In this document: positions 27,101-49,880 of the stretch, in pieces | How the letters are laid out: every line of letters begins with the position of its first letter | Position numbering within the stretch: position 1 is the stretch's first letter | The notes under the pieces: generated by a model | What the model saw: only the letters and a program-made list of their open reading frames with translations | Database searches by the model: none | Told to the model about the DNA's origin: nothing | Assembly (NCBI GenBank): GCA_050273025.1 | Contig: CP158635.1 | Location: forward strand, 15,872,001-15,936,000 | Source of the DNA: Cenococcum geophilum | Taxonomy: Eukaryota | Reading direction: 5' to 3' | DNA length: 64,000 bases | Translations under genes and position numbers: made by a program

Positions 27101-27162
27101 ATCGTACAGGCTTGCGCGACCCTTTTGCCGTGCTTATGTCTCGATTGACTAAGTCGCTAACA
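21179..27162 (+). mobile_element. Gypsy/chromovirus LTR retrotransposon B, copy 1, inserted within the 5' LTR of A
   Basis: 237-bp LTRs 21179-21415 and 26926-27162 (TG...CA); TSD TCGGT (21174-21178, 27163-27167); RT YLNNIIIY (~24308); PPT ggagggggggg; A LTR sequence resumes after 27167. Confidence 0.95.
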
Positions 27163-29293
27163 TCGGTAGAATTCAATTAATCTAGCAGAATTTGGCAGAA
27201 TTTAGTCAAAGTGTCAAAATTTATCTGTCGAGTGTTTCACCGAGACATTCCTACTATAACTAGGCTAGTCCCGTTACAAAAGGGCATATTCGGTTGCACC
27301 TCCATATTATAACGGAAATGGAGCTCCTCTATATCGGCAAGCGCGTTAAATTTACAAGCCACACCATATACAGTAGTTATAATAAGGTTCTTGGCACCAT
27401 TTTAATATAGAGCTTTAAGCTCCTATTCTATATTCTATATTTAATCTAGAGCCCTTATATACGCGCTAAAGCAACGCATATAGCGACTCCACACGCCTTA
27501 ATCGCAATACGGCAGTCGCATTTGCAAGCCTTATATAATATCATTATATTAACCTTTATAATCGCAATAAGATTATTTCCGGAGGGCGCTTATACTTTAT
27601 TACCTAATATTAGCGGTACTACTTATTAGCATTTTAACTAGTAGATCTTTGTCGTTAAGAACTAATTTAAGGTTAATAATGCTAACTCCGACTATAAGTA
27701 ACGTACGTGCTAGACTATTAAAGGTCTTATAAAAGTGAAAATAATTACCTAACTAGTTTATTACTAGTTAGGTATTAAGAATAAAAGTCCTTTACTATAA
27801 AATAAGTTTAAGACTATAGTCTAAAACTAAATTAAAAAACCCCTATAGTAGGACACTTTAATAATACTACTATATACTATACGGCTATTATAAAGAAGAA
27901 CTAGAGGTTTAATATCTTCCTAGCTCGTATATATAGCTTAGAGGACTATTTCTTATATACCCCTTTTATTAATCCTAAGTAATAGGTAGACTTTTAGTTC
28001 TTATACCTCCTAGCTTACTTATAAGTAGAGCTCTTTTACTAAAACTTTATTAAATAGGTAAGGACCTCTTTACTAAAATCCGCTCTATAAAGTAACTACT
28101 TAATATTATAAGGCTTATGGAAGATTGCATAGTTAGTAATAATAGATTCTCGCGCTTAGGGTATAGTTATAGTATAGGCTTTATATTAACAGTGCATGGG
28201 ATACTATTTAGTTCTACTAAGTCTACTAAGTCTACTAAATCCTTAAGTGCATTAGGTAGACTTATTACTCTCCTAGTTGCTAAGTTAGATAAACCGCCTT
28301 ATTGACTTGTTAAGGTCTTAGCTTATTACGGGCCTCCTTCTATATAACTTCGTAGTCCTATATTTTAAGTATTTCCCTAACCTTATAGTTCTCGAGCACG
28401 TTTATTACCCTCAGTCGATTATTTTAACCTGTCGATCTTGTACCGCTGGTACCGATTCTATTGTCTTAGGTCAGCGAGGGCTGTTCGTAACACCTATACC
28501 CCTTCCTCCAGCGACTCCCATCCCCCACCTCTACAACCTCTCCCCGCCATCAGCACATGGGACCAAATCTTCGACACGGCTACCCGGATAGATAGGGTCA
28601 TGGGACATGACCATCACATCACGAGTATTCAGCGCGGCGCGCCCATGCGAACCAGGGCTGTTTGCGGAGGAACGGCTGCTGGTTTTTGGAAGTTGGCATT
28701 GAGATAAAGATTTTGCAACGCGTCGAGGGATTTCCAGTGAGTTAGGTGGACGACGTGGATTTGCCATTCTGAAGGCATGGCGGGTGAGGGTTGGGAGAGA
28801 GATAGGGGACTGGATGCAAGTGATGGACAGGAATGGGGTGCTATATTTTAGAATACTTGTGTGATAAATACGTCGAATCTCTAGTAATGATGATTGGAGA
28901 ACGTAGTTTGAAGTTGATAGTGATATGCTGTGATGCCAAGAACATCCTTGAGGGCATTAGAAATCAACAGGCTCTCCACAAACTTCCTCTTTCGAACTTG
29001 AAACAGCTCCCAAGCATACTTCGAATAGACCTTACCGATTCACTGATCTTTCTCGAATAGGCCTAGTGGAGTGGAATTCCGCCAAAGAATTCTGTGATTG
29101 AGCTTGATAAGGTTTTCACTAGCTCTTGACTTGATACGGCAGTACTTTGAGAGACAACACGTAAATTAAATATACGGGAGGAACAGTAATGAGAGCGGCT
29201 ACAGGAATGGGAGGAATTGAATTAGTCAACCTTTGGCCACTTCTTTCCAGGCCTCCTAGTCCGTCAGACATCCCCTCTCTGTAATTGACGATT

Positions 29294-30349
29294 CTATACC
29301 AAATAATAGATGAGAGACGCAAATATTGAAATCGCGCCGTACACCATCGATGGCACAACTATATTGGCTGCAGAAGTATTTATTGGAGCAGGAGCACCAC
29401 TATCCACTGGACAGGTCAGATTGAACTGCGGGGTCGTCGACAGGTCATTTGTAATAGCGAACTTCTCCGTATTCGCCGGATTCGAGTCACGCAAGTTATA
29501 CCACCAAACATTCGTCCTACCAAACAGCGTACACCCGATCTGATCCCAATAAGTCTTCGCATTATTGACGGATGGCACAGCTTGACCGAATGAAGGTCCA
29601 CTGGTAGGCCAACCAGTCTCTGTAATCCATACGGGCTTCTTACCCGCGGCCGAAAGCGTCTTGTTGTAGATGTAGTCGAAGACAACAGTGGCATTCTCAA
29701 TCGTGTTGACCTTGTCCTTTTCGTAGTATGGGTAGAGGTCCGTGCCAATGAAGTCGACGGCTTCAATGACAGCGGTGTTGGAGGAGTTGGACCAGGCGCT
29801 CCAGGAGTCGACGTGTCCGACAGGCTTTCCGGCCAATTCTGTATTGGCAATAGCGGAACGAACATCTTTAATGAAGGCGATGATCTCATCTGGCCCTGTA
29901 CCGATGCCGGCATTGTTTTTAATGCCGCTTTCGGAGATGCGGTAGAGGTCTTCGCTACCGACTGAGATACCGACGACTAGGTCTGCAAATTTCTGACCGT
30001 ATTTTGTGATGGCTGCTTGAAGTGCGTTCAGTTCATTCGTGATCGTGTTCGATCCAGAGCACCATAGCCCCAAAAGCATAGTGGTATTGGTGTCGACAGC
30101 GGCTTGGAAGGCTGAAATTGGCGTGTCAGTCGTTCCGGCCTGGACGTTGGTGTAAAGCCGAACGCTGTTGAACGTGCCGGGAGAGCCATGGAGCGCTTGC
30201 GCAGTCTTGAACTCCTTCTCGAAATCGGATTGCTGCTTCGCTGTGCTGTCGGCGAGAGTGGCGCCTGAATTGAAACCTAGATAGGCTTGTTGTTGAGCGG
30301 TTACAAGCGCAATATAGGGCGCAAGCAGTAGTACTTTCGGGGGGAACAT
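29294..30349 (-). CDS. Glycoside hydrolase family 17 beta-1,3-glucanase/glucanosyltransferase (EglC-like), secreted and probably GPI-anchored, 351 aa, intronless
   Basis: Only long intact ORF; ATG at 30349 (the ORF track start at 30376 is TTG); signal peptide MFPPKVLLLAPYIALVTA; GFNSG, SVRLYT, LLGLW, VGSEDLYR (acid/base Glu), GHVDSW, WITETGWP (nucleophile Glu); hydrophobic C-terminus. Confidence 0.93.
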   Translation of the reverse strand: MFPPKVLLLAPYIALVTAQQQAYLGFNSGATLADSTAKQQSDFEKEFKTAQALHGSPGTFNSVRLYTNVQAGTTDTPISAFQAAVDTNTTMLLGLWCSGSNTITNELNALQAAITKYGQKFADLVVGISVGSEDLYRISESGIKNNAGIGTGPDEIIAFIKDVRSAIANTELAGKPVGHVDSWSAWSNSSNTAVIEAVDFIGTDLYPYYEKDKVNTIENATVVFDYIYNKTLSAAGKKPVWITETGWPTSGPSFGQAVPSVNNAKTYWDQIGCTLFGRTNVWWYNLRDSNPANTEKFAITNDLSTTPQFNLTCPVDSGAPAPINTSAANIVVPSMVYGAISIFASLIYYLV

Positions 30350-30428
30350 GATCGTGAGGCTAGAAAAGGGCGACAAGGGGTTAGAGTGGTAGGATTATGA
30401 CGCAGAAGGAATTGCGGCCTGAGAGGTC

Positions 30429-30436
30429 TATTATAT
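30429..30436 (-). promoter_or_regulatory. Putative TATA box of the GH17 gene
   Basis: Minus-strand ATATAATA ~80 bp upstream of the ATG, with a pyrimidine-rich stretch between. Confidence 0.4.
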
Positions 30437-31193
30437 GAGCGAGAAAAGGACACAGATCTGAAGGCTCATGCCGACTCGGCAGGGTGTATGGCGTTGTCCA
30501 TAAATTAACCAAGAAAGCGCCGCATCAAAATAGCACCTCGTGCCGTTAACATGGCCAAGGTCAATGAGCAAAGCTGGCCATTGAACGACATAGCGATGGA
30601 AATACGACGGAATGTGAGAGTTCTAGGATCATGGCCGAAGCCAAGTTGGGGGCGGCGCCCTCAGCTGGTCTTACAGTAGCTATTCGCTCACTCGCTCTAC
30701 TGTGGAGATTGCCCTTCAGCCCTGCGCACGCCGGCCTCCTTTCACGTATCGAGCCATGCAGCTGTTGGGTAGCGGATTCTAGGAAGATCGACGGCATTAT
30801 CGTTGAGTATGTTCAGGGTGTAGTGTGAGAGTTTGGTGTTCACGGCTCAGCTGAGCGCCCGCTGAGTCGCTGAGTCGCACGTGACACTAACAACCCCCGT
30901 CGACAATTCGCGAATGTCCACGGCTAAGCCTGCAGCCAAGCCGTGGACATATTCGAATATCTATCACATATCGGGGGGGCTAATTTGGCGCGGTTACGAC
31001 CCGGGTTAATACGAGGTTAGGGCTACCCCTACTGATAACGCACCCGAACCCCGCACGAGGTCGCGCAGCGACCGCCCCCAAGTACTTTCGCACGCGATTT
31101 TAGGCGAAAAGGTATATAATTTATATTAAATTGGTACTTCTAGACGGTCGCGTAATGTTACTCTAAATTTACAACACCTAAACGGGCTCTATT

Positions 31194-31570
31194 CCTATAT
31201 TAAGGCGTCTTAATTACTATAGTACAGTCCTATATTAAGACGTCTTAGTTACTATAGTATAGTCCTACATTAAGGCGTCTTGGTTAATGCAGTGCAGTCC
31301 TATATTAAGGCGTTTCGGTTACTATAGTGTAGTTATATATTAAGGCGTCTTAGTTACTACAGTGCAGTCCTATATTAAGACGTCTTGGTCACTAATACAG
31401 TCCTATATTAAAACGTTTTGGTCACTAATACAGTTCTATATTAAGACGTCTTAGTTACTATAGTACAGTCGTATATTAAGGCGTCTCGGTTACTGTAGTA
31501 TAATCGTATATAGAGGCGTCTTAGTTACTATAGTGCAGTTATATATTAAGGCGTCTTAGTTACTGTAGTA
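31194..31570. repeat. 35-bp minisatellite (~11 copies, two 33-bp variants)
   Basis: Unit CAGTCCTATATTAAGGCGTCTTAGTTACTATAGTG; TAAG(G/A)CGT core at 31201, 31236, 31271, 31306, 31341, 31376 and onward. Confidence 0.9.
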
Positions 31571-31939
31571 AAATAACTATTTAGATATTCTTATAAAGCT
31601 AATCTAAAGAATACTAACCTCGTAGCTGTTCTAGCTAATTAATAGCCTATCTCTTATCTCTTGCTATACCGTCTTCTACGCGCCATCTTACATCCTTAAT
31701 TATCCTACGGTGACGGCTATAGAATATAGCCTCGCTATTAACCCGCTAGTGTACCCCCTAGTAGTAATTAAGAGCTTTAATTAACGGCCTACTTACTAGC
31801 CCTAAAGTCTACTTAGTTTAGAGCTAGAAGACTAAATTACCGCCTTAAAGCATTTTATATTTCCTTAGTAGCGCCTATAGGTTAAGGATAAATAGGAAAG
31901 ATGGTTAAGTATTGGCTTATACCTACGCTAGTAGGGGTA

Positions 31940-32125
31940 ATACGGATATAGTAGACGGCTAAGTAGGTAGTATAGATATTATAAACGGCTAAGTGGACGG
32001 TGTAGATATTATAGACGGCTAAGCGAACGGTATAGATATTATAAATAGCGGCTAAGTAGGTAGTACGGATATTATAAACGGCTAAGTAGACGGCGCGGAT
32101 ATAGTAGACGTTATAGTAAACGGCG
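31940..32125 (-). repeat. 30-bp coding-type tandem repeat (PSTISAPSTQ-like) in the Crypton linker
   Basis: Units of acggctaagtggacggtgtagatattata(g/a); in frame on the minus strand upstream of the GCR1_C-like domain. Confidence 0.7.
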
Positions 32126-35100
32126 TGTTACGGCACTGGCAGAACTTGGCAGAACTACGCACCGGCAAGTTGCCACAGATTGCCGCATATTGCGGTCACG
32201 TGACGCGAAGATCGTATATAGCTTTGAGCGGCGCTCCCCTTCTTCTCCTTTCCTTTCTTTAGCTTTAGATTCTCGTTTATAGACAATCCAATCATATAGG
32301 CTTACGCGACCCTTTTGCTATGCTTATGTCTCGATTAACTAAGTCGCTAACATTATCTAAAGCTTACTCTACTCTTTCTTCCTAAAAAGGAACTTAAATA
32401 TATCTACGAGAATACAAAACAGGACCCTAAGGACATTACTAGAACTATAAGGACAGGACCTAAAAGAAAAGAACAGAACCCTAAGGAAAGGACCCATAAG
32501 ATATATATAGACTAGAACCCCTAAAGAAATTACCCAGAATTACCTAATACCCCTACTACTATACTATAAACCACAGTAGTAGGTAAAGCAGCTGTAGGAC
32601 CCTTAAATACTTTAGACGAAGAAATAATTAACGTTTTAACCCCCTAGGCGGAGCTTACGGCTACTAATACCGAAATTAAACAATTACGAGAGCTGCTTAA
32701 AGCTAGAAATACCCCTATATCTAATAATAAGTCATTATTAGATAACTAAAGACTTACTATAGTTCTTTAGGCCCTATCCTAGCGCCTTAGTAGAGCTACT
32801 AAGGCCTATATAGCACTAAAGCGGTCAGCAAAGGTTACGGACCCCCTACTACTTACAGACGGAACCGACCCTATATTTAATAATTAAAAGCTTTAATTAC
32901 GGGATAAGCTTAAAGTTAATATAGACTACTTCCTTAACGCCTAAGCCAGAATAGCCTACGTCTTCGGCCGTACTGGTAGAGACACCCAGATGCATTTACG
33001 CCCGCGATACACTAAAGACTTAATAGACCCCTTTATCTCTAAAGAAGAAATAATTAAACACTTATCTTCTATTTATAAAGACCCTTTTAAAGTATAAAAC
33101 GCCCGCCTAAGCTATAAAAGCCTAAACATAAAAATAACGGAGACCTTTTTGGCCTTCTAAACCCACTTTCTATACCTGGCCAGATAGGCCTAAATCCCCT
33201 AGGAAGACCTACTACCAAACCTCTTTAATAAGCTTACCCTAGACCTATAGCGGGCTATATTACTAGCTTATATTACAGCATAGACGTTAAAGGAACTTAT
33301 AGACTATTGCCTAGCTATTAACTAAGGCCTCTATTAAATTAAGACACGCGCTAACTAGCTAAAAACTAGAAACCTTATAAACCAGGCCGCAAGTACTGCG
33401 AGTATAGCCTATAGTACCCTAGTATAATTAGCAACTCCTATAGCTAACCCGGCAGCTAGCTACGTAGCTACCCCTACTATAGGCCTAGTATACACCCGGC
33501 TTATATACAGCGACCCCTATATATAGGCCCTTAGCAATTAAGGAGCTTACTTCTTATATGGCTAAATAGGCCACCCTATAAGGAACTACCTAATAAAGGT
33601 AAAGATAAACGAGGTTCTATTAATTTAGAAGGATAATATAAAGCCGGAAAAAAAGGAACCTTAAAGGAAAACTCCTCTCTAGGGTTAAAAGGGATTGATA
33701 TATTATATATTAATCTAGGTCGGCTAGTTAGTAAAAAAAGCTACACTATCCCTTATACTTTATTTCACAATAGATATTAAGTTTTAACCTCTACTTTAGC
33801 TAACTTAGGAGTAAATACCTTTACCTTAATTAATATAAAATGCGCTATAAAACTAGCTAACTTTTTAAATATACCCCTTAAAGAACTGCCTAAACTAATT
33901 TCTATTTACGGTTATAACGGACGGATAGGGCTACTTATTATAACTATCTTATAGATCTACCTCCGCGTTAACGGACAAAGGTAGTATAACGTCCCCTTTC
34001 TTATTACGGACTTAGGAAGCCATAATATAATCTTAGGAAGAAAATAGCTAGCCTATTTAGGCTTATAGCTTAAAGTATAAAGTAAACGGCTTATCTAGCC
34101 CAAAACTCTACCCCTAACCCCTTCCTTTATAAAAGAAATTAGCATTATAATAGAAAACCTTATACGGCCCTAGATTAATACTATTTACTAGGCTAATGCT
34201 ATACGTAAAGACTAGGCCTTTAAGAAGGACGTATAGCTTAACCCACAACGGATCCGTATACTACACCGCCCTTAGACTACCTATATTACGCTACCCGCAC
34301 TAGAGACCTAGAAAGTTAGTAATAACCTAGCTAAGTTCCCTATAGAGAACCCTATAAAGCCATAAAGGAAAGCTAGGAATATTAAACGCTATACTAAACT
34401 AATAGATAGGAAGGATAACTTATAGAAAATAGAATGTAAGCTAAGGAAGACTATAAACCCTATACCGTAAACCACGGCCTAACGGACGCTAAAGAAACCT
34501 ACGGACCTCCTACTAGTTAATGTCTGCTATATTAGCGCTATAGGATTCTACCAGAACCTAGTTCAGCCTAATACCGTTACCTTTACAACTAGCCTATATA
34601 AAATTAACCAAATAATTAAGGAAAAGGAAAGTAAGCTTAGCGGATAAAAAAGTGGGCTTACGGATAAAGAACTAGTGGAGAAAAAACTGCCTAATTAACA
34701 CCGGAAATTTAAGGACGTATTCTCTAAGGCAGCATCTAATATACTTCTACCCTACTAACCATATAACTACAAGATTAAGATTAAGTAAGACAAGGGAAGT
34801 ACCCTTAGCTTTAGCCCTCTCTACCTATAATCTATTACCAAATTATAGGCTATAAAGCAGTACCTTATTAATAACCTAAATAAGGGCTTTATTAAGCCTA
34901 GCTAAGCCCCTTTTAACTTACCTATTTTCTTTATTAAAAAGCTAAATAGAGGACTGCGCTTCTATATTAACTACTATAAGCTAAATAATATAACCCGCAA
35001 GGACCGCTACCCGCTGCCCTTACTTAATAAAACTCTTACCTAAATAAGTAGAGCTAAGGTTTTTATAAAGCTTAATATCTACTAGGCCTTTTACTAAATT

Positions 35101-38100
35101 AGGATAAACCCTAAGTTTAAGGATTTTACTATATTCTGGACCTATTACGGGACGTATAAATATAAGGTACTTCCTTTTAGACTAACTAACGGACTAGCTA
35201 CGTACTAGCGGTATATAAACAATATACTCTTTAACTACCTTAATAACTTCTATACGGCCTATCTAAATAATATTATAATCTACTTAGAGAATAAACTAGA
35301 ACACAAGGAGCACGTCTATAAAGTCCTATAACGGCTCCGCGAAGCTAGCCTCCAAGCCAATATTAAGAAGTTGGAATTTAGTGTTAAGCGTATAAAGTAC
35401 CTAGGTTTTATTATTAATATAAATAAAATTAAGGCCGACCTAAAGAAAATAACCGCAATTAACTAGTAAACGCCCCTACGGACTATAAAGGGGGTATAAT
35501 TGTTTTTAGGTTTCTATAACTTCTACCAACACTTTATTAAGAACTATAGTAGAATTGCCTAGCCTCTTAACCGCCTTACTAGGAAAAACCAACCCTTTTA
35601 CTTTAACGCTATATATATACAGGCCTTTAATAAGCTTAAAAAACGGCTAGTATCGGCCCCCTTACTTACCCACTTTAACCTAGAACGGCCCTTAATGCTA
35701 GAAACTAATACCTTAAATGGCGCAATAGCCAGTATTTTTTCTTAGAAGCAACCGGATGGAGAATGGCACCCTATTATATACTATTTAAAGACTATAATAG
35801 ATGCTAAACTAAACTACTACATCCATAATAAAGAAATGCTAGCTATTATCTCTAGCTTTTAGCACTAGCGTATATAGCTAGAGGGGACCCCTAAACCTAT
35901 TAAAGTAGTATTAGATTATAAGGCCCTAGAATACTTTATAATAACTAAGGCCCTTATAGCCCGGTAGGTACGCTAGGCGGATATCCTATCTTAGTTTAAC
36001 TTCTTAATTATATATAGACTAGGCGCTATAAACCGTGTAAATGCTCTTACTAGGCGTAAATAAGACCTAGGTAACTATATGGCTATAAAGATCTTATTAC
36101 AGACCTAGACGCTACTATAACTAGAGCACCTTAACCCCTAAATATAGGCAGAACTAAATACAGACTCCTTAAGCGCCAAGATATATTCTATTAACCCTTT
36201 AGGACTTAACTTAATTAATAAATTGCTATAGATAAACCGTACGGCCCCTTCTCTACAGAAGTACCGTAAAAAGGCAAAGAACGTTACCAGCCCATAGTCC
36301 CTCAAAAATGGATTACTTAAGCATTAGAAATAGCTAGTAGTGGCAAAAAAACAAAACTTATAAACTCGGCTTATTACTAAAGCATATACCTAGGTCTCTA
36401 TAGCCCACCCTAAAAAGAATAAAACCCATAGGATTATTAGCGACCGCTACTACTGGCCCAAAATAGTTATAGATATTAACCGCTATATACGGAACTGCAA
36501 CAACTACTGTAGGTCTATAATCCCACGAGATAAGACCCTAGGATTATTAAAACCCCTCCTAATATCTAACCGCCCCTAGTAATATGTCTCTATAGACTTT
36601 TATAAACTACCTCTAGACTGTAATGGGTATAATATAGTTATAATCCTAGTTAACCGCTTTAGCAAGCGCCCGTTCTTAATTCCCTATTATAAGAATATTA
36701 ATGCTAAAGAGGCAGCCCAACTGTATATCTACTACGTCTACTAAATTTACGGACTACTAGATACTATTATATCCGACTATAAGCTACAGTTTATATTAGC
36801 CTTTTAGAATAAGTTTACCTAGATCCTAGGCATTAAGCTAAAGCTTTCTATAGCATATTACCCCTAGATAAACAGTTAAATAGAGATTATAAATTAATAC
36901 TTAGACCAGAGACTCTAGCCTTTCGTTAACTACTTCCAGAATAACTAGGCTAAACTATTGCCCTTAATAAACTACGCCCAAGCGACCCTACCCCACAACT
37001 CTACCGGATTTGCCCCTATTTAACTAGAAATAGGTTACCTACCCCACATAAGCTTTAACTGGGAAAGACTAGAAGGGCCCTAAACTATATACGAAAAACT
37101 ATCTCATAAGGAAGCCCAGCAGTACGCTAAGCGCTTAGAAAAAGCCTAGAAAGTAGCCCATACAAACCTAGATAAGGCTTAGAAATTAATAAAACAGTAG
37201 GCAAATAAGCATAGGCGTAAGCCTAACTTTACTATAGGCGATATAGTCTAGGTTATAATAAAGAACTAAAAAACAGAACGGCCTAGCTATAAGCTGGACT
37301 ATAAGATAGCAGAACCGTATAAAATTCTTAATAAAGTAGGCAATTTATATAAGGTTAAGCTCCTAGACTTAATTAAAGTCCACCCTATCTTCTTACTAGA
37401 TAAGCTATAGAAAGTTATAAATAACCTACTACCCGGATAAAAGAATAAACCTCCCCTACTAATTTAAGTTAACGATAATAATAAATAGGAAATTAAAGAA
37501 ATACTAGCTTATAAACTTATAAAGGGAACATTAAAGTATTGTATTAGTTAGAAAGGATATAACCTAGACCCCACTTAGTACCCTATATAGAACTTTATAG
37601 GTAGCCCCCATAAGCTTTAGGAGTTTTATAGCTATTACCCTAATAAACCCAAACTGCTAAAGTACCTAGATAAGTAGATAGAATGCTAGTATAATAAAGA
37701 TAATAAGCTACTAGAAGAATATAAGAACAAAAACACCCTAGAAATTTCTTAGTTATATAAGGTATTAAGATATCTAGGAACTTAGACCGGCGGTTAAAGT
37801 TGTCTAATTAGTTAGATTCTCTTATTAAGACTTTTAGCGGCAAAGCCTAAGGGCAGGCTTTTTTAGAGGGGGGGTAATATTACGGCACTAGCAGAACTTG
37901 GCAGAACTACGCACCAGTAAGTTGCTACAGATTACCGCATATTACGGTTACGTGACGCGAAGATTATATATAGCTTCAAGCGGCGCTCCCCTTCTTCTCC
38001 TTTCCTTTCTTTAGCTTTAGATTCTCGTTTATAGACAATCCAATCGTACAGGCTTGCGCGACCCTTTTACTATACTTATATCTCGATTGACTAAGTCGCT

Positions 38101-38104
38101 AATA
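32126..38104 (+). mobile_element. Gypsy/chromovirus LTR retrotransposon B, copy 2
   Basis: 227-bp LTRs 32126-32352 and 37878-38104; TSD CGGCG (32121-32125, 38105-38109); colinear with B1 throughout, differing mainly by transitions. Confidence 0.95.
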
Positions 38105-39214
38105 CGGCGTAGGCTTACCTAAAGGTAGATATATAGACTCTATAGGCCCTATCTAAATACCTATCTTCCCTTACTAGATCTATATAGGTATAAATAATGC
38201 TAATAACCTTTTTATTTTACTAAGGCGTTCTAAAATTATCTATACGCGTAATTAAACCCCTTTTATTTTAGAGATTGCGGCCTTATATTTTAGCTTAGCT
38301 ACGGCCTTATAAGTAGGCTAGTATTTCTATATTATTAGCTTATTTAGCGTAACTATATTAGCTAGTAAGCTTTCTACTATATAGTAAACCTCTAATACTC
38401 CTTATAGCTAAAGAGGGGGTCCTTTTATAGGGGGTGGAGCGGAAACTGCTTATGTAGGATTACTAAGTCCTATAATAGAATTACCCTAAGTATATAGAGG
38501 AGGCGTAGAAATCCTAAGCCCGTAAAGTTAAGCTATATAACCTTATTATTAGCCCTACCTAAGTAGTAGGCCTCTATATATTTTAGCTAGATATTAGTCT
38601 TAGGCTATATCTTTAAATAGAGGGCCTCCTTTAGCACCTCCCGTGTATAAGGGAGAAAGTAGCCCTTATCTTTCTTTAGGAAACTAGTAATTAACCATAT
38701 AAATATATAGGGTAGGTAGCTAAGGTAGGTTCTCGTTATTGCGTTTATATTCTAGTATCCAGCCTATCTAATTTAGGTCTCCTTAACGCTATTAAGCTTG
38801 GTATACTAGACGCTTTACTTATAGCCGCTATAGGTTTTCTCCTTTAAGTAAATTCCTACCCCCTAGAATATCTTTTTATTTTATTTAAACTGCATATAAT
38901 AGCTTAGCGGCTATTATAGTACTTTAATACTGCTAAGGAAGACGTATAGGTTATAGTAGTCCTCTAACTACTAAAAGGATAGGAAGCTCTTAGCGCCGTC
39001 TTTACCCTAGTAGTTAAAGAAGTAAAAGGCTACTATAGAGAGGGGGTAGAGAATAGGGTTAGCGTTCTATATACAGCCTATATACTTAATTTTACCATAC
39101 TAATTCTACTTCCCTTATATTATTAATATAATTATATACAGCGCTAACTCGTCTAGTTTAGGTCCTTTATTCTCTAGTTTAATAAAAATAAGGTTAGTAA
39201 GCTAAATACCTTAT

Positions 39215-42200
39215 TATTACGGAACCCTACCGCAGGGGCCTCTATAGGAGAGCCCCGTGCTCTTATATATACCTCGCGTATAGCTTATATTAGCTACGCG
39301 TAGGTATATTACCTCCTTACGCCCTCGACCCTTACGATCGATCGCGCAACGTCTTATAGACTCCTTAAATACATACGTCTTATAGCCATTGCCCCCGTCC
39401 CATAACATTACGTTACGCCTTTTTTATTACCGACGCTTAACCTATAACCAATTCTACGTCTTTGCAATACTGCAGGCGCTGCTAGAAGCAGCGTGTTTAC
39501 AAATTACCTTACTTTAAACTTCTAAGGAACCCATAATAGTAAGACAATATTCCTTACTAGCTACTATATTAAACCTAAAGAACAACCTAATACCTATACT
39601 TAACCTACGCCGCCAATTAATCCTAGGAGAATTTAATTTATTAGCCCTAGCCTTAACCCCTAAAGGGAAGCCTAGTGGCCCAAAAGACTACAACAACCTT
39701 AACGAGGTAGATACTAATAATGTCTTATTCTTTATTAACTATATAACTACAGACAAGCAAGCGAAAGGGTTACTACCTATTAAGATTAAAATACGAGACG
39801 CTAAGATATTTATAAAAAGAGTAGTATAAGAACCTAATAAATACTACCACCTTTTATAGAACTACCACCTAAAGCTTATATAAGCTAAGATGCGTACTAC
39901 CTAAGATTACAATATTATTTAAGACCTATAAGCTTATAAGGCGCTTACTAATAACACGCGCTAAAAGACTAAAGATGACCTCCGCGTGTCTAAACGCGAC
40001 GTCTAATAGTTAAAGAAGGCTAAGATTATACTTATTGCTACGGTTACTAAAAAAGAGGGCATAATTAAATACCTATAATCTTAGCTTAATAAGCACATTT
40101 ATAATAACGCTAGATACCTCTCTATTATATATAACGCCACCTAAGTTTTTACGCCCCTGGCAACCTTACTAACTTAACGCTTAATAAAGAATTAACGCCG
40201 AGCAGCCTTACCTAACAGGAACCCCTACTAGAGCGGCAATAATAAAAGCTATAATAATTAAACCTAAGCTACTACCGCAGGGTTTAACGCACGTTACCCT
40301 AACCCCCTAGTCTTTTAGGGAGACCGTAAGGAATACAGCCACTAGAAGATATAAATCCGCAAGAAACTAACCTAGAGCGCCTACCTTTTTCCTACAGAAG
40401 ACACGAAGATTAGCTATATTATTAGGCGAATAAAGAGTACACTATTTAATAGACTCTTCGCCTAATAGAAAACTAATAGCCCCTAAAAGTGGTAGTCCTA
40501 CTAAAAAGTCCTTAATAATCTCAACCTAATATACCGCAACTATAACCTATTGGCCACTAGCCAAGCTAAACTACGTGCCCTAAAAATGAGCCCTACTAAA
40601 TTATTTAATAAGTTCTATATTAAATTCCAGAAATATACCGGAGCCCTCGCCTAAGATAACACTAAAGACTAAAAGGACCTCCTTAAAAAAGTTACTTATC
40701 GCCTTAGTTACGCAGCCGCTAGCTATAACTATAACAACGTCTATAATATAGTAGCAGCCCTATAGAAGATTAAACAACAACTAAATTAGATTGCTACTAC
40801 TAATCTTTACCTAAAGACCTCTCTATAGAAGCCCTCTGGGCCTACTAAACCTATACATACTAAGCCACTAACGCCTACTACCTTAAGTACTACGGGAGCT
40901 AATATTAACCTCTCTATACTAACCTTTCCGTAAAAACTCCTAAACGGAGAGCGGGAGCTACTCTAGAAACTAGGACGCTGCTATAGATACCATTAAGAAG
41001 GCTATTATTGCGATAACCTAAACTGCCTAATAGCTAGATTTAGTAGCTGCCGTCTAATACTTAACCTAATACCCTAAATACTAAATATATTACTACGCGC
41101 TACTACCATATAAGATAAAGACGTAGTAATAGCAGTAGAATTGGATACGGAAGTAGAAAACGCCAAGTCCCTACCCTAAGTTGTGGGTTAGGACGCCCTA
41201 ATAATAGAGGGATCTATATATTGGCCTACTTAATAAATAACTTAGTAAAGATAAATGGACAAAAATAGATAGTTTTACCTGTAATAGGAACTACTGCTAA
41301 AAAATAATATAAAAGCCGTTCTATAATTAACTGCGGAGCCACTAATAAATTTATAGATACCTAATTTGTGCGTACTTATAGCCTACCTACCTTACCCCTT
41401 ACTAAAGCCCGCGCCCTATAACTCGCTAATAGTAGTTCTACCGCATAGAAGATTACTTACGTAGTATAACTCTACTTAGATATAAACGGGCACTAAAAAG
41501 AGCTTTAGGCCTATATTATACCACTTACTAACTACCCTATTATCCTTAGAATAAGCTAGCTTAAATAATATAACCCCGCCATTAATTAGGAAAAGAGAAA
41601 AGCAACCTTTAACTTTAAATACTATAGAGAGACTTGCCTAGGACATGGCCTAGCCGCCTCTATTTACTCACTAGGATATTAACCTAAGAAACCCCTTATT
41701 ACCCCACCTACGACTAACTACCACTACGTAAGTGCTGTGGCCTTCTACTATATAGTATATAAGAAAGGCTGGACCATTACTATAGCCTCCTAATTACGAC
41801 TATATAAGCTTAATAAAGAATAAGACTACGTCCTCTATAGTAATAGAATAGATATAGTCAACCTTTTAGAAGACAACGCCCCTGCGGAACTCTATAGACT
41901 TTTACCTTTAGACTTTAAGAAGTTTATAAAGCTTAAAAAAGGACTTACTAACGAGGAACTCTATAAGCTCCTCCCTAAGAAGTACTACGACTTTATCAAT
42001 ATATGCTTATAAAAGAGCGCAGATATACTCCCCCTATATTAACCTAATAACTATACTATTAATATTAAATAAGGAAAAATACTACCCTATAAAAGACCCT
42101 ACCTAATATCTAAAGACGAACTTCTAGTTATAAAAAAATATATTAACAAACACCTTAATAAAGGATTTATCCGCCCTAGCATGTCCCTAGTAGCTGCCCC

Positions 42201-45200
42201 TATCCTTCTTACTAAGAAGCTAGAAGGAGGTATTAGATTCTACGTTAACTATAGAGGACTTAACGCTATTATAATTAAGAACTAATACCCCGTACCGCTT
42301 ATACGTAAGACTCTTAAGCGGCTTAGTTAAGCCAAAATCTATACTAAGCTTAATATTATCGCCGCCTTTAACTATCTCTAAATACGGGAAGGTAACGAAT
42401 AGAAAACCGTATTTATATTACGCTTTAGCCAATTTAAATATACTATTATACCCTTTAGTATATATAACGGCCTAGGCACTTTCTAAAGCTATATTAATAA
42501 CGCCTTATAGGACTACCTTAATGACTTCTGCTCTACGTACCTGGACGACATACTTATCTATAATAATAACCCTTTTAAGTATACTGAGCACGTCTAAAAA
42601 GTCCTAGAGCGCCTTAGGGACGTAGGACTTTACATTAATTTAAAGAAGTGTAAATTTTTAGTCACAGAAGTAAAATACCTTAGACTAATTATTACTACTA
42701 AGGGTGTCTGTATGGACCTTAAGAAGGTATATATAATTACCAAATAGCAAGCCCCTAACTGTATTAAGGACGTATAAGCCTTCCTTAGTTTTACTAACTT
42801 TTATTAGAAATTTATATATAACTTCTTAGGCGTAGTAGCACTACTTATAGCAATAATGCGAATAAAGGGCCTTTCTACAAAAGGAAGAAAAACGTACCTA
42901 CGTTTTACCTAGATGCCTAAATATAAGAAAGCGTTCTAAGACCTTAAAAATGCTTTTACTAAAGCACCTATTCTAGCTTACTTTATACTAGGACAATAAC
43001 TCTACCTTAAAACTAACTCCTTAGACCACGTTAACGTAGGCGTCCTTTTCCAAATAGGTAATAACAGCCTCCTCTACCTAGTCGCATTTTACTCGTTTAA
43101 GCTTATACTATAAAAGTATAACTATAAGATCTATAATAAGAAACTTCTCGCGATTATATAAGCATTTAAGAAATTCTAACTAGAACTCTCCTTAGTAGAA
43201 CCCAATTAGCTAACTAAAATCCTTACGGACTATTATAACCTTAAATACTTTATAACTATAAAGTAGCTAAACTAAAGCCAAGCACGCTAGAACAAGTTCC
43301 TCTCTAGTTTTAACTTTAAAATTGTATATAGACTAGGAGTATAAGGTACTAAACCTAATAGCCTAATACGCCGCTTGTAAGACCTTCCTTAGTCTAAAGA
43401 TAACCCCTACAATTAGTTCCAATAATAGACGATCTTAAAAGTACAAAATTTGGCCCTAGGTATACTACCTACAATAGAGCTAACTATACCTTAGCTTTAT
43501 ACTATAGAACTAAAGTTACCTCCCAAAATTAACGAGCTTATTACTACAGTATATAACACCTCTATTAACCCATTACTGTATTAACTTATTACCGTAAAGA
43601 CCGCTAGCGCCTATACGCTACCTACTAACCTTTAAAGCTTAGGCTAGATTAATATAGCAGCCTTAGAAGTAAAAGAGAATAGGCTCTATTATAGAGGCCG
43701 CCTATTTATCCCTAACTTAGAAAATCTATAACGGCAACTAATCTAAATAGCCTATAACCTCTAATTAAGCGGCTACCTAAGTAAAGGAGGAACCTACGAG
43801 CTTTTTAGCCGATACTACTTCTGGCTAAAAATAATAGACTTAGTTAAACACTTTATAGGCGCCTACTATAGTTATAAGCGCGCCAAGGCCTTTAATATAA
43901 AGTACTAAGGACTACTATACCCTCTACTAGTACCTATATAACGATAGGCAGATATCGCTATAGATTTCGTTATTAACCTACTACCTTATAAATAATACGG
44001 CTATACCTATAAGAACATCCTTATAATAATATACCAACTTATAAAAGAGCGCCACTACGTCCTAACTAAAGGTGTAGCCGTTAGCGACGTTACTAACGCC
44101 TTCCTTTACGAAGTTTACCAACTACATAGGTTACCTAACTTAATTACGTCCGACTAAGGCATATAATTTAACTCTGATATATAGAGACGAACCTACCAAC
44201 GCCTTAGTATCTCCGTTAAGATATTTATATCCTTTTACTATAAAACTACTAGGCAACCAGAAAACGCTAATGCTAGTATAAAAGCGTACCTATAATAGGT
44301 AGTTGCCTATAGTTAAGATAACTGGGTAGATTACCTCCCACTAGGCGAATTCGCAGCAAATAACTACGTCTTAACCACTATAGGACTTACCCCGTTCTTC
44401 GCAAATAAGGGTTATTACCCCTAATCTGGCATAAAGCCACTAGAACCTATTAATAAGAAACTACTATATAGAAAACGCCTTAAGATACTACTTGCCGACT
44501 AGTATACGGACCGTATAAAAAATCTACTCGACTACTATAAGGGAGAAATGGCCTAGGCTTAAGTAAAGTAGGCCTACTTCGCCGACTATTATAGAACGCC
44601 ACCACCGGAGATGCGTGTTGGCGACTGGGTATAGCTAAATATACATAATATCTCTACATAGAGGCCTATAAAGTCACTTAATTATAAGAACCTCGGCCCC
44701 TATCTAATTAAACAAGTTATTAATAGGGGAGCTGTATATAAGCTAGAACTCCTACCTACCCTAGCCACCCACGGGATATAGCCTATATTTTACCTATAGC
44801 TACTACACCTCTATTAGCCTAACCCCTTACCAGGGCAAATATAGCTTAAACCCCTACTAGTACTAATCTAAGATAAGAATAAAGATAAGAACTATAAGGA
44901 ATGGACTATTAAACGAATTATTAACTCTAAATACTTTAATAAAGGTAGAGGACGACGGCTCTACTACAGAGCTATATATATAGGATTTAATATAGATTAG
45001 CTAAAATGGTAACTATAGGAAGACTTTAAAAATGTAAAGGATCTAATTAGTAACTTTTACTATATAAACCTATAGAAACTAGGCCTAAGTAGAGATTTTA
45101 TACCTAATCCTCTATAGGAGCCCTTATAGAGTTAAACCGTTATATATTGCTATATAAGGGCAAATTACTATTAAATTGCCGTTAGATTGCGGTAAAGTGC

Positions 45201-45614
45201 GATTATATAACCGGAAAATTGTTAAGATGTCCAGGAACTTTAACTAGCGGTTAAAGTTATCTAATTAGTTAGATTCTTAGATGCTAAGCCCTATTATATA
45301 ACGTTATTTTAAACCTTTAGTAATACCCCCCTTTTTTTCTTTTCTATACCTTAAGTGTCCCTTTTATATATATAGTAACTATAGCGTCGCCGGAGCTCCG
45401 CCTCTATAGGAGGGGGGGTAGTGTTATAGAACCCTACCGCAGGGGCCTCTATAGGAGAGCCCCGTGCTCTTACGTACACCTCGCGTACAGCTTATATTAG
45501 CTACGCGTAGGTATATCACCTCCTTACGCCCTTAACCCTTATAATCGATCGCGCAACGTCTTATAGACTCCTCAAATACATATATCTTATAGCCATTGCC
45601 CCCGTCCCGTGACA
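39215..45614 (+). mobile_element. Gypsy/chromovirus LTR retrotransposon E (6.4 kb), RIP-inactivated
   Basis: 193-bp LTRs 39215-39407 and 45422-45614; TSD CTTAT; protease INCGAT (~41325); RT YLDDILIY intact at ~42538; chromodomain-like EWTIKRIINS (~44900); PPT aggagggggggtag. Confidence 0.94.
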
Positions 45615-47269
45615 CTTATCTACTTTTACTATAGGTAATAGTAGTATAGCCTAAGGAATAGGTTAGAAAACGGCAGCTATATAGACCTAGTAGGGTATAT
45701 ATAAACCTAATAAATACTTAGCTATAGTTTAAAGGTAAGACTTAACTAAACCTAGTATTTTAGAGCCCGTCTTTTAGTACTAAGTAATCGCCTTTTTTAG
45801 CCCTTTAACGTTATAGCCGCTAGTAATTATAAATAGGCCTTAATTAATAAAGTTAACGTATTAAATCCGGTCCTTATTACGGCGGACGCTGTCTAGTACT
45901 ACTAAGAGCTTTACCCCCTATAGCGGCTATAAGGTCTTATCTTCTAACTGCTATATATAAAGCTTAGTAATAGCGGAGACGTAGCTATTTATAACTAAGT
46001 ATTAGATTATCTCGTTAAATAGGACGTCTAGGGCCTCCTTATCCTATATCTCCCCTTCCTCCTTTATAGGTTCATCCCCTATAACTATAGCTGCCCCTAT
46101 AGCTGCCTTTCCCCCTAGCTACTCTACCCGCTTAACTGTCTTTTACCTCTTTTTTACCTACTTACTACCTTTTTATATTTCTTTCCGTTTTAACTTCCAT
46201 TTTTAATAGCTAATAGCCTATAATTTTTAGTTAATAACTTACTGCTCTAAAAATAGGTAAAGCTTATTTCCTATTACCTAGGCGCCGTCTGTATTACCTT
46301 TTAGTCTTATATACTAGTTTTCCTACTTTTTCTATTTTAGCTTATACACCCTTATAGTATTCTTTAAGCGCTAGGCCTTATAAATATTGTATAGCCGTAC
46401 TATTTAAGCCTTAAATTCGCTTTAGAGGCTATAGGGGGAAAAGGCTAGGGGGCTTCTATTAACCATAAAGTGGACTATAGGGTAAGAAGATTCTTAAAAG
46501 ACTTTATATCTATAAAAGGTAAGGGGGGAGATATATAAGTATAGTATAGGTAAATAAAGTTACTAAATATGTAAATATTAAAGGAGAAGGAGAAGAAGAG
46601 GGCTTTATATTATATAATTAGAATTATAGTAGGCCTTTCTATATAAAATTAAAAGCCCTATATAAGCTAGCGCGGGTATAAAAAAAGAGAGGGTTGGAAA
46701 ATATATTATTAAGGCGACGGTAAGGTCAAAGGCGCGCTAAGGCCCTTTATACTAACCTAGTACTAACCTAGGCCTTAAAAACGCGTCTAAAAAGTAGGGG
46801 CCACCACTAAAGGAGAGGGGGGGGGTAATATTTAGATGATATGTCGCGGACCTTAGGGGTTTATGCGTAACCTAAGGTTATACTAAGCCTAACCCGGACC
46901 TCCAATACCTTACCCCCCTACTAATTAAATTACTAATACGCGCGTACTATTAGCCTATTAGGCTAGCTATACGCCTATATATTTATCCTATATAGTAAGT
47001 TTACTTATTTACTTACTAAGCGGCCAGTAAGCAGGTATACTTTCTCTATCTCTTTTTAGCGTAAATATATTTATTTCCTAATAGAGATAGAAAGGCTATA
47101 TAAAATTAGTCTTTAGAACCTAATACTCAGTTTTATAAACTATTTAAGTATAACTTTTAAAATATAAGATGTTATTTAATATTATATAGCTTTCCTTACA
47201 CACTAAATAGCTATTAAATAAATTTATATTTAGTATAAATAAATTAAGATATTTATCCTTAATATAATC

Positions 47270-47991
47270 TGTTATCTTTATTATGGACCTTATATTAGTA
47301 GTAGTAAAACTACTAAAAAGAAACATGTATAGGTTAGTTAAAATAGTATAGAAGGCGCTAGAACTAATTAAGCTATAGAATAAGGGGTAGCTATAAGTTT
47401 AGAATATAAAAACATAGGAATATAGGAATATAACGTAGTAACGTAGTAACGTACTTAGTATATTTCTTAGGCCTAGTATTAAATACTTAAAGAACTATAG
47501 TCCCTACTATAGATAGTTCTCTTCTTTATAGTAAATCTTAAAATATAATTAAAGTTAATCTATTAGGTAACTACTCTACTAGTTATATTTACGTTATTAA
47601 CTATTCTATATCTATATAACTAGCCTATTAATAAGTCCACTATAGTATTTCCTACAAGGCTTCGTTATATATTTACTTCTATAGTTATAATAAAAGAAGT
47701 TAAACAATATACTACTTAAGTAAGTAATAGTAGTAACGCTAACCGCGGCAATAACTACTTTAGGATTAAAAGGAGATACTAGTATAAACGACGGTAACTT
47801 ATAGGTAGTCACGATAAACTAGTTAAAAAGTATTATTAAGCAGAATAACGCTAATAATTAGGCACTACTTTAACAAATATTGGATATAAAAAGAGAAAAT
47901 ATTAAAATACTATAGATTAAAAGGGTTGTAGGAGAAAAATATAAGCTAAAAGGATTTCTTACGTAAATAAGAATAAAGGTGCTATATAAAG
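47270..47991 (+). mobile_element. Truncated Gypsy related to C: 5' LTR (~47270-47669) plus gag start
   Basis: 47500-47640 aligns by eye to the C LTR (tagtccctac...gttaatctattagg); the following sequence matches C gag (KLKGFL). Confidence 0.7.
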
Positions 47992-48900
47992 TGTTACTGG
48001 ATACCCCTATAATACCTTATATACGTCCACCTGTTTCTACTAACTTAGCAACTAGAGACTAACTATAAGATAGCAATCTAATAGCAATCTGCGGCAATCT
48101 AACGGCAACCTACCGTATTCTGCTATATTTTACTAAGTTTTACTAAGTTCTACTAAATTCTGCTAAGTTCTGCTAGAATTACTACCTAAATCCTATTTTA
48201 CTCCATGTATATATTAACTAAGCAACTAAGTCTATAATATATACCCTTTCTTTCTATTTTCTACCTTCTTTCCTTATATAACATCTTAACCTCCTTATAC
48301 AGTTTATATATATAGCTTAATAATATTAATCTTACTATATATTATCGCTGCTTATACTTACTCCGTAATACTACATTACGTTAACTATTTATACTATTAT
48401 TAATATATAGAACAAACTTAAAACTCCTATAACGGCCACTAGCATTATATCCGTACTTTAAAAATAATTAATAGAGATATAGAAGTCCTTTATAAACGCC
48501 CTTATATAAAACTAAGCTATTTTAAATTAATAATAAGCCGAATAAAAAGTATAATACTAGTAATTAATTAAGGACCTCTAAGAAGAAATCCGCACTCTTA
48601 AGATGCCTACGCTAGGACCTTAAGACTAAATACTATCTCTGGAGATAAATACGCGGAACGTAAGTCCTAAACCTATAGTAGTCTCTTACTCTAAGCTAAC
48701 TACTATACTATAACAATCTAAATAACTACTAAATCCCCTAGTATTTACTAATAAACGATAAAAGCTCTAATTATTTCTAAGCTAGCTTAAAAATAAGCTA
48801 ACTAGTAATGCTAACTGCTACCTAACTAAAGCTAACTAACTCTATTACGCCCTAAGTTAACTAGGGGGAAAGGTAGCTAACCTTATTAAACCTAATAAGT
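47992..48900 (+). mobile_element. Truncated Gypsy head: LTR (47992-48370) plus gag fragment
   Basis: TGTTAC...CCGTAATA termini; gag-like FLS*LKNKLTSNANCYLTKAN*LYYALS*LGG at ~48775-48870; no second LTR. Confidence 0.65.
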
Positions 48901-49880
48901 CTTACCCCTAGAATATATAGTTTAAGCTATTAGGTAATCGTCTATATAAATATAGCCTTAATATCCTTTTTTACTAAGAATTTAATAACGCTTACGCTGT
49001 TACTTATTCGCTATATATAGAAGTCCTTAAGTATAGCTCCTATAAGCCTCTTAACCTCCTTTATACCTTATATAATAGTCTATTTTACTACTTTAGTAGT
49101 AGCTACCTTCTCTGTTACCTCCTTACCTATTTAGCTAATATCTATTACTAGCTACTAATTAGGTTTCTTAAAGTTCCTAACACTTATTATTTATAGCAGG
49201 GCCTCCCCTACCCCTACCGTGTCTCTACTAGCCGCTACTAACGCCTATACTTATATTAGAGTTAAGGGCGTATTTAGTTACGCTTGTAGGGATTAGATAG
49301 CTTTTTAGAGTTTAGTATTTTACTTTTTAAGGCTTTACTATTCTAATTTAATGTCTATAAGGTTATTTCTAATACTCTTAATAATATTGTTCTGGCTTAT
49401 AATAATATTGCTCTATAATGCTATAGTTTCTTTAAGGCTTTTAATAAGTCAACCAACTTTGTTAAGATTAATACCTCTTTTTTTATATTTGGGTAAGGTT
49501 ACTATAGGAAATAGCAGTAATATATTCTACGTAGCTTATAGTTTAATTTATAGTATAGTTTACGGTGTAGTTATTTGCTGTTTATATTACGCTAATTATT
49601 AAGCTTATATCCTTAGTAACTGTTAAGCCTCTAACACCTTCGCGCTCGGTTTCTTTATATATCCTCTTAGTAGAGCCGCTAGCGGGTCTAAAGGTAGTAT
49701 TGCTAATACACACTTAGGGGTTAAAGTAGCTATTAGGGCTTTAGGGCTTTGTTTAGTAGGCTATAGGGGCCGCCTTATAGTGGGAACTAGCTAAATAAAA
49801 GACTAGGATTTGATTAAAAGAATACCCAAGATAAATATCCTCCTCTTTTAAAAGTTTATTCTAGTAAGGCGACTTTAACG
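48900..49880 (-). mobile_element. 5' fragment (ORF1/5' UTR) of a LINE of the same family as LINE F
   Basis: 49140-49860 colinear with 60530-61500. Confidence 0.75.

Follow-up and report, generated by a model that had tools for sequence, protein, structure and literature searches.

The window analysed here is a stretch of 64,000 nucleotides from Cenococcum geophilum (assembly GCA_050273025.1, contig CP158635.1, positions 15,872,001 to 15,936,000 of the forward strand; all positions below are those within the window). It is an A+T-rich fungal repeat landscape of the type left by repeat-induced point mutation (RIP), with small islands of normal G+C. From position 46910 to 30957, its minus strand carries what is very probably one copy of a CryptonF-type DNA transposon, split in three by two long terminal repeat (LTR) retrotransposons of the Ty3/Gypsy type, B2 and E. 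The assignment to CryptonF is supported by the predicted domain architecture, the termini and the other copies of the element. From the 5' to the 3' end of the transposon, the parts of the locus are the following.

46905-46910, minus strand: 5' terminal hexamer AGGTAT, start of the element
46467-46904, minus strand: 5' non-coding part, aligned in all full-length copies
45707-46466, minus strand: exon 1, N-terminal region (profile nodes 11-187), start codon uncertain
45651-45706, minus strand: intron of 56 nt, GT...CTAAC...TAG, whose splicing merges the profile match
45620-45650, minus strand: start of exon 2, up to the first Arg box (opposite RGE..RR), where E is inserted
39215-45614, plus strand: Gypsy E, Ty3/Gypsy LTR retrotransposon nested in the first Arg box of the Crypton
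38110-39214, minus strand: tyrosine-recombinase core and start of the linker, with NDC10_II at about 39153-38395
32126-38104, plus strand: Gypsy B2, Ty3/Gypsy LTR retrotransposon nested in the linker of the Crypton
31581-32125, minus strand: remainder of the linker, GCR1_C-like domain (about 31859-31620) and stop codon TAA (31583-31581), placed by Tandem Repeats Finder (TRF), BLASTP and the profile
30963-31580, minus strand: 3' non-coding part, made up of a 35-bp minisatellite (TRF) and a G+C-richer tail, aligned in copies up to the terminus
30957-30962, minus strand: 3' terminal direct repeat AGATAT, which repeats the 5' AGGTAT apart from one G>A change

Both inner elements are delimited by their LTRs and by perfect 5-bp target-site duplications (TSDs). 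The LTR pair of B2 (32128-32350/37880-38102) is 92% identical and that of E (39212-39407/45419-45614) 91%; the TSD is CGGCG (32121-32125 and 38105-38109) for B2 and CTTAT (39210-39214 and 45615-45619) for E. On the plus strand, the order of Pfam domains is RVT_1, RT_RNaseH, Integrase_H2C2 and SH3_Tf2-1 in B2 and RVT_1, RT_RNaseH and SH3_Tf2-1 in E, and both are therefore of the Ty3/Gypsy type. None of the three Crypton segments contains an open reading frame (ORF) of 80 aa or more, and the gene is indeed invisible to an ORF listing, as a first-pass annotation of this DNA had stated. We read the segments with X at stop codons and joined them after removal of B2, E and one TSD each.

Several lines of evidence point to a single gene. 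A phmmer search of 1.84 billion representative proteins gave 357 homologs at E ≤1e-3 and 121 at E ≤1e-10, and a separate protein homolog search gave two matches, P0151 and P0152. NDC10_II was present in 19 of the 19 homologs scanned against Pfam, 12 of which also had a C-terminal GCR1_C. From the 42 phmmer matches with a length of 550-900 aa (full-length homologs), a family profile of 702 nodes was built. In the joined sequence, the upstream segment matches nodes 11-187 (E 2.9e-11), the stretch over the E junction nodes 194-464 (E 5.9e-49) and the downstream segment nodes 591-685 (E 4e-6). The three pieces are therefore colinear: an N-terminal region, a recombinase core and a GCR1_C-like C terminus. 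As a control, the native window was cut into 642 six-frame pieces, of which only these three segments matched the profile at E ≤1 (exon 1 with E 2.8e-10, the middle segment with E 2e-47). With the insert taken out, the E junction reads AGT AGA TAA GGT ATT, exactly as the first-pass annotation had written it, and it is crossed in one frame by the predicted natural proteins P0005 (73% over 126 aa) and P0152 (77% over 115 aa) as well as P0004. The B2 junction is crossed by one tblastn match of P0007 (38377 to 31584). The proposal that three minus-strand segments join after excision of both Gypsy elements with one TSD each is thus borne out by the colinear profile, by homologs that cross the junctions and by uninterrupted copies described below.

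Splicing out 45706-45651 turns two profile matches of 31.3 and 156.1 bits into a single one of 212.8 bits (nodes 11-485) and puts exon 1 (46466-45707) in frame with exon 2. Comparison with 51 other copies shows the signals GT, CTAAC and TAG to be conserved, and the same intron frame change is required in L058, a less-mutated copy. The merged match and the splice signals kept elsewhere make the 56-nt intron, which had been postulated earlier, a real one. In contrast to segments and intron, which were read correctly, a frameshift had been overlooked: the window copy has a private 1-nt deletion between 38377 and 38376 (the base is present in about nine-tenths of the other copies in the copy alignment), so that the frame changes where the recombinase core passes into the linker. 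The ATG at 46466, where exon 1 was taken to begin, is not a conserved feature; it lies at columns that vary among copies, and so does an upstream ATG in L058. Altogether, the reading is 813 codons long and is interrupted by 76 in-frame stops (by type TAG 51, TAA 26, TGA 0). TRF detected a 30-bp coding tandem repeat in the linker (31936-32093), made of decapeptide units that are repeated in L058 too, and a 35-bp non-coding minisatellite of 10.9 units (31193-31570) directly after the stop codon. Unit numbers differ among copies, since many blastn matches break inside both tandem arrays.

The recombinase domain was found directly in the window copy, where 38110-39213 of the minus strand matched Pfam NDC10_II with E 1.5e-18 and 67.4 bits over profile positions 65-316 of 317. 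For the C terminus, 31901-31581 aligned by BLASTP to the stretch of P0007 that Pfam defines as GCR1_C (48% over 104 aa, E 2e-27). L058, the least-mutated natural copy, has NDC10_II (6e-43) and GCR1_C (4.2e-12; 46.6 bits with a cut-off of 23) in one frame and is 53% identical to P0007. The first-pass annotation had named the lack of an NDC10_II/GCR1_C match as what would overturn its reading; in the event, the search returned the NDC10_II match above and both domains in L058, and the reading stands. Compared with the 42 full-length homologs, the seven conserved positions of the recombinase core, in model numbering, are as follows.

Position 260: R in 41/42 homologs; TAT (Tyr) in the window
Position 265: R in 37/42 homologs; TAA (stop) in the window
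Position 299: K in 42/42 homologs; K kept in the window
Position 392: H in 39/42 homologs; TAT (Tyr) in the window
Position 395: R in 42/42 homologs; TAT (Tyr) in the window
Position 418: W in 41/42 homologs; stop in the window
Position 427: Y in 42/42 homologs; Y kept in the window

Only K and Y are kept in the window copy, and every change at a catalytic position is a C>T or G>A transition of the RIP type. L058 still has H, R, W and Y. This agrees with the earlier claim that the catalytic R, HxxR and Y can be recovered by reversing RIP. The codons TAT AGT AAA AGT AGA|TAA lie opposite the RGE..RR box of the homologs, and E sits within codons 264/265, inside the first Arg box (RGESRR), where it had been placed before.

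The RIP indices describe the state of this copy. TpA/ApT is 2.0-2.2 and (CpA+TpG)/(ApC+GpT) 0.17-0.19 in the three Crypton segments; the 5' non-coding part has values of 1.78 and 0.26, and in the two Gypsy elements the second index is 0.34-0.39. Most mismatches to homologs of normal composition are explicable by C>T or G>A; when compared with P0001, for instance, 93 of 134 mismatches were derivable in this way and 8 by the reverse changes. With its stops, the 1-nt deletion and the lost core positions, the window copy is dead and is capable neither of giving a protein nor of autonomous movement.

No second Crypton copy was found within the window. Elsewhere, a 21-nt motif of the 35-bp minisatellite that follows the stop codon retrieved at least 133 metagenome loci, and the counts of copies and ends given from here on are those among the matches listed. 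By blastn, 119 of 133 loci have a match of at least 300 nt to the joined element, and at least 16 full-length matches in at least 14 loci span both junctions without an insertion; the native Crypton/Gypsy junctions of the window are bridged by 0 of 133 loci. The copies have a median likeness of 85.6% with transitions and transversions in a ratio of 10.7:1. Furthermore, contigs of four public runs were placed on 45419-49200 at 80% likeness. In each of the four runs, tens of distinct contigs per site cover 45620-46940, with breaks at 46910 and loose ends at this position in runs X1, X4 and X10. Six X10 contigs cross the empty E site (loose end 45615). Most differences are transitions; in X1 they amount to 184 A>G, 198 T>C, 121 C>T and 97 G>A, compared with 81 transversions in total. 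That RIP implies a multicopy and mobile element had been argued on indirect grounds; the metagenome copies, their unrelated flanks and the run contigs now show it directly. We also considered summed contig depth, about 200-1200x that of the window-identical contig, as a measure of copy number and rejected it, as depth is not copy number. Outside the Crypton, summed depth at 47451-47704 is far above its surroundings in 4/4 runs, with loose ends at 47510, and marks a very abundant repeat; the bins at 46943-47196, just beyond the end of the Crypton, have a much lower depth.

The termini could be fixed to the base from aligned copies. The element runs from 46910 to 30957 on the minus strand, 3,565 bp without its insertions, with at least 80 distinct uninterrupted ends in support. 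Among the blastn matches listed, 41 start at 46910/46911, 95 end at 30953-30961 and 0 extend beyond. The extent given previously, 46466-31581, covers the gene, but the element is longer at both ends. Of 35 distinct 5' ends, 34 start with AGGTAT; 14 have unrelated flanks and 21 follow the 3' end of another copy. At least 80 distinct 3' ends comprise 53 with unrelated flanks, 25 head-to-tail and 2 tail-to-tail. In the 53 with unique flanks, the next bases are A in 53, G in 51, any base, T in 51, A in 50 and T in 47, and positions 7-10 are random; the window copy itself is bounded by AGGTAT (5') and AGATAT (3'). Neither terminal inverted repeats nor long direct repeats were found when the first and last 300 nt of the window element and of another copy (L028) were compared, the best likeness being 10-17 nt with E ≥0.065 and internal in all cases. 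There is no TA duplication at the ends of the element, whose flanks have only the hexamer in common, and inspection by eye only gave nothing convincing in the way of recombinase-binding inverted repeats around the hexamer.

In all 25 head-to-tail cases, the two units share a single hexamer at an exact junction. One array (L050/L051, contig Ga0307515_10004259) has at least three full copies head-to-tail in a row, after which a fourth begins. Adjacent tandem units have a likeness of 0.91-0.93, compared with 0.856 for the median pair, and differ by 330 transitions vs 1 transversion and by 218 vs 4. Because these differences are almost exclusively transitions, adjacent copies must have been near-identical before RIP. 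A different arrangement is seen on contig Ga0307515_10050582 (L042), where the 3' ends of two copies in tail-to-tail orientation are separated by just a few bases. A literature search by title and abstract, which did not cover Goodwin et al. 2003, gave no relevant paper on head-to-tail tandem Cryptons.

Could the locus be something other than a transposon of its own? It is known that RIP can leak into sequence adjoining repeats, and a domesticated, single-copy host gene of the Ndc10/Gcr1 type, mutated by RIP leaking from the two inner Gypsy elements, would also fit the match to a Pfam family named after the domesticated Ndc10 and the lack of a second copy in the window. Crypton-derived host genes do exist, according to passages of PMC3212892. 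This explanation is nevertheless very improbable, and in practice it is refuted by the multicopy nature of the family: dozens of copies agree in their non-coding ends and have a terminal hexamer and unrelated flanks, and each of the four runs contributes tens of contigs per site. Moreover, RIP has altered the Crypton pieces more strongly than the Gypsy elements from which the mutations would have leaked (0.17-0.19 vs 0.34-0.39), and the core positions are kept in 37-42 of 42 homologs, whereas in Ndc10/Cbf2 and Gcr1 the catalytic site is described as lost in the same passages (PMC3212892). It is also highly unlikely that the recombinase gene belongs to a composite or other element, be it a MarCry-like Mariner-Crypton with a DDE transposase, a Starship captain or a retroelement of the DIRS type. 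Starships and DIRS elements use tyrosine recombinases as well. MarCry-1_FO, as presented in part of PMC3212892, illustrates that Cryptons can ride in other transposons. However, in six frames of 26000-32125 and 45620-52000, the only Pfam family with a match was that of the neighbouring glycoside hydrolase family 17 (GH17) gene, and consequently no DDE transposase, reverse transcriptase or DUF3435 is found there. In addition, the repeating unit is just 3.5-3.7 kb long with sharp ends at 46910 and 30957, and terminal inverted repeats and a TA duplication are missing from flanks that share the hexamer only.

A CryptonF-type transposon thus remains our reading of the locus, and several points weigh against it or parts of it. 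The Pfam profile of GCR1_C does not match the window copy, neither in 9 frames of it (E ≤10) nor in 12 flank frames (E ≤0.01), for which reason the assignment of this domain in the window rests on homology to P0007 and L058; of the two domains claimed earlier, NDC10_II is seen directly and GCR1_C only by this detour. The metagenome loci, being fished with a motif, are a biased sample, with all copy and end counts taken from the matches listed, and they may derive from related species instead of that of the window. An intact copy was not seen: 65 of the 65 listed copies of at least 1500 nt are RIP-mutated, with a longest open stretch of 141 aa, so that any activity lies in the past. That the element is excised, forms a circle and is exchanged within the hexamer is inferred by analogy. 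Finally, the head-to-tail tandems could be later tandem duplications or unequal crossovers, with the hexamer merely the end of the unit. This is a real possibility, if short of probable, since adjacent copies are more alike than the median pair and differ almost only by transitions. Against it stand the exact junctions with one hexamer in 25/25 cases and the fact that 21 of 35 5' ends are such junctions; furthermore, a sister copy that integrates into its neighbour gives an equal near-identity. The question of duplication bears on the origin of the tandems only and leaves the identity of the element untouched.

If the locus is read as a CryptonF copy, the intact element would have encoded one protein from two exons split by the 56-nt intron, with a recombinase core (NDC10_II fold; R, K, H, R, W, Y), a repetitive linker and a C-terminal GCR1_C. 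Goodwin et al. (2003) are said to have described Crypton-Cn1 and to have put forward a model of circular excision by the recombinase and site-specific integration of the circle. By analogy with that model, the present element would leave its site as a circle cut out by the recombinase. It may then integrate when its terminal AGGTAT recombines site-specifically with a similar AGNTAT in the target, leaving the hexamer on both sides. Exchange with the hexamer of a copy already in place would produce a head-to-tail tandem. We tentatively suggest that the high copy number was reached in part by integration into resident AGGTAT or by multimeric circles, and that the tandem arrays are footprints of the recombinase; this is possible but not a conclusion we would press. 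On this reading, the window copy integrated beside the GH17 gene; B2 then landed in the linker and E in the first Arg box, and RIP ruined the copy. In one metagenome locus (L045:4654-4762), a Crypton copy ends inside an LTR of the E family, at an AGGTAT that is also carried by the E LTR of the window. Insertion has therefore occurred in both directions between Crypton and Gypsy E, and their periods of activity overlapped. E-like sequence occurs in 6 and B2-like sequence in 15 of the 133 loci.

On its 3' side, the Crypton is followed by an intact gene.

29294-30376, minus strand: GH17 gene, ORF of 360 aa, Pfam Glyco_hydro_17 with E 1e-7

The ORF lies in an island of normal G+C, about 580 bp off the 3' end of the Crypton, and has no RIP signature (0.75 for TpA/ApT, 1.11 for (CpA+TpG)/(ApC+GpT)). 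Over the last 150-250 bp of the Crypton, the RIP signature fades toward this gene. A second member of the B2 Gypsy family occurs further upstream in the window, at about 21190-27150. There, 21202-25081 is paired with 32139-36035 by repeat families D1-D4 and D6 (89-94% identity), and the start of an LTR is at 26926. Other LTR-like pairs in the window are 2070/9593, 11270/17294 and 49209/60596.

The example illustrates that annotation based on ORFs misses whole transposon families in fungal regions rich in RIP. To our knowledge, few Crypton families have well-defined termini. In the present case, ends exact to the base, AGNTAT as the landing motif, a gene model and a chronology of the nesting are available, so that the family can readily be masked and dated. 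With its high copy number and many exact tandem junctions, it also offers useful material for testing the model of circle integration. If the tandems are indeed footprints of the recombinase, they would offer a handle on how "cut-and-paste" Cryptons gain copies, a question raised for the active element of Chlamydomonas in the portion of PMC9977147 drawn on here. What is known of Cryptons in general is unchanged by this family. Since RIP-affected Cryptons are mentioned in several surveys of fungal transposable elements (in part of PMC4522978), a RIP-dead relic of this sort is ordinary; what stands out is the abundance of the family, its many exact tandem junctions and the minisatellite.

In sum, the element resembles the CryptonF elements of fungi and oomycetes, such as Crypton-Cn1, in having one protein with a tyrosine recombinase and GCR1_C and a gene with an intron, and in its 6-bp terminal direct repeats without terminal inverted or long direct repeats. 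The combination of tyrosine recombinase and GCR1_C is an architecture described for CryptonF only, as far as sections of PMC3212892 go, which also describe CryptonF elements as lacking terminal inverted and long direct repeats, as having mostly 6-bp terminal direct repeats and as being usually of very low copy number. Judged by its sequence, the family appears to be new within the known CryptonF kind. It differs from the known members in that identity to the mutated window reading does not exceed 32% even for the best full-length homologs, in the 35-bp minisatellite after the stop codon and in that every listed copy is RIP-dead. Moreover, unlike most Cryptons, which are of very low copy number in the same sections (PMC3212892), it is high-copy, with frequent head-to-tail tandems. 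CryptonF-1_cRei of Chlamydomonas reinhardtii is active, has the end CACCG, targets CAYCG and moved in mutation-accumulation lines, according to excerpts of PMC9977147. As in that element, a short end motif and near-identical targets go together (CACCG/CAYCG there, AGGTAT/AGNTAT here), a likeness that fits site-specific exchange by the recombinase; host, motif and family differ, and movement in our family is deduced from dead copies only. With Ndc10/Cbf2 and Gcr1 of Saccharomyces, from which the Pfam names derive, the element shares the same two Pfam domain families. Unlike these single-copy genes, whose catalytic site is lost in the account given in portions of PMC3212892, the family has kept its core positions in intact relatives and is multicopy with defined ends.

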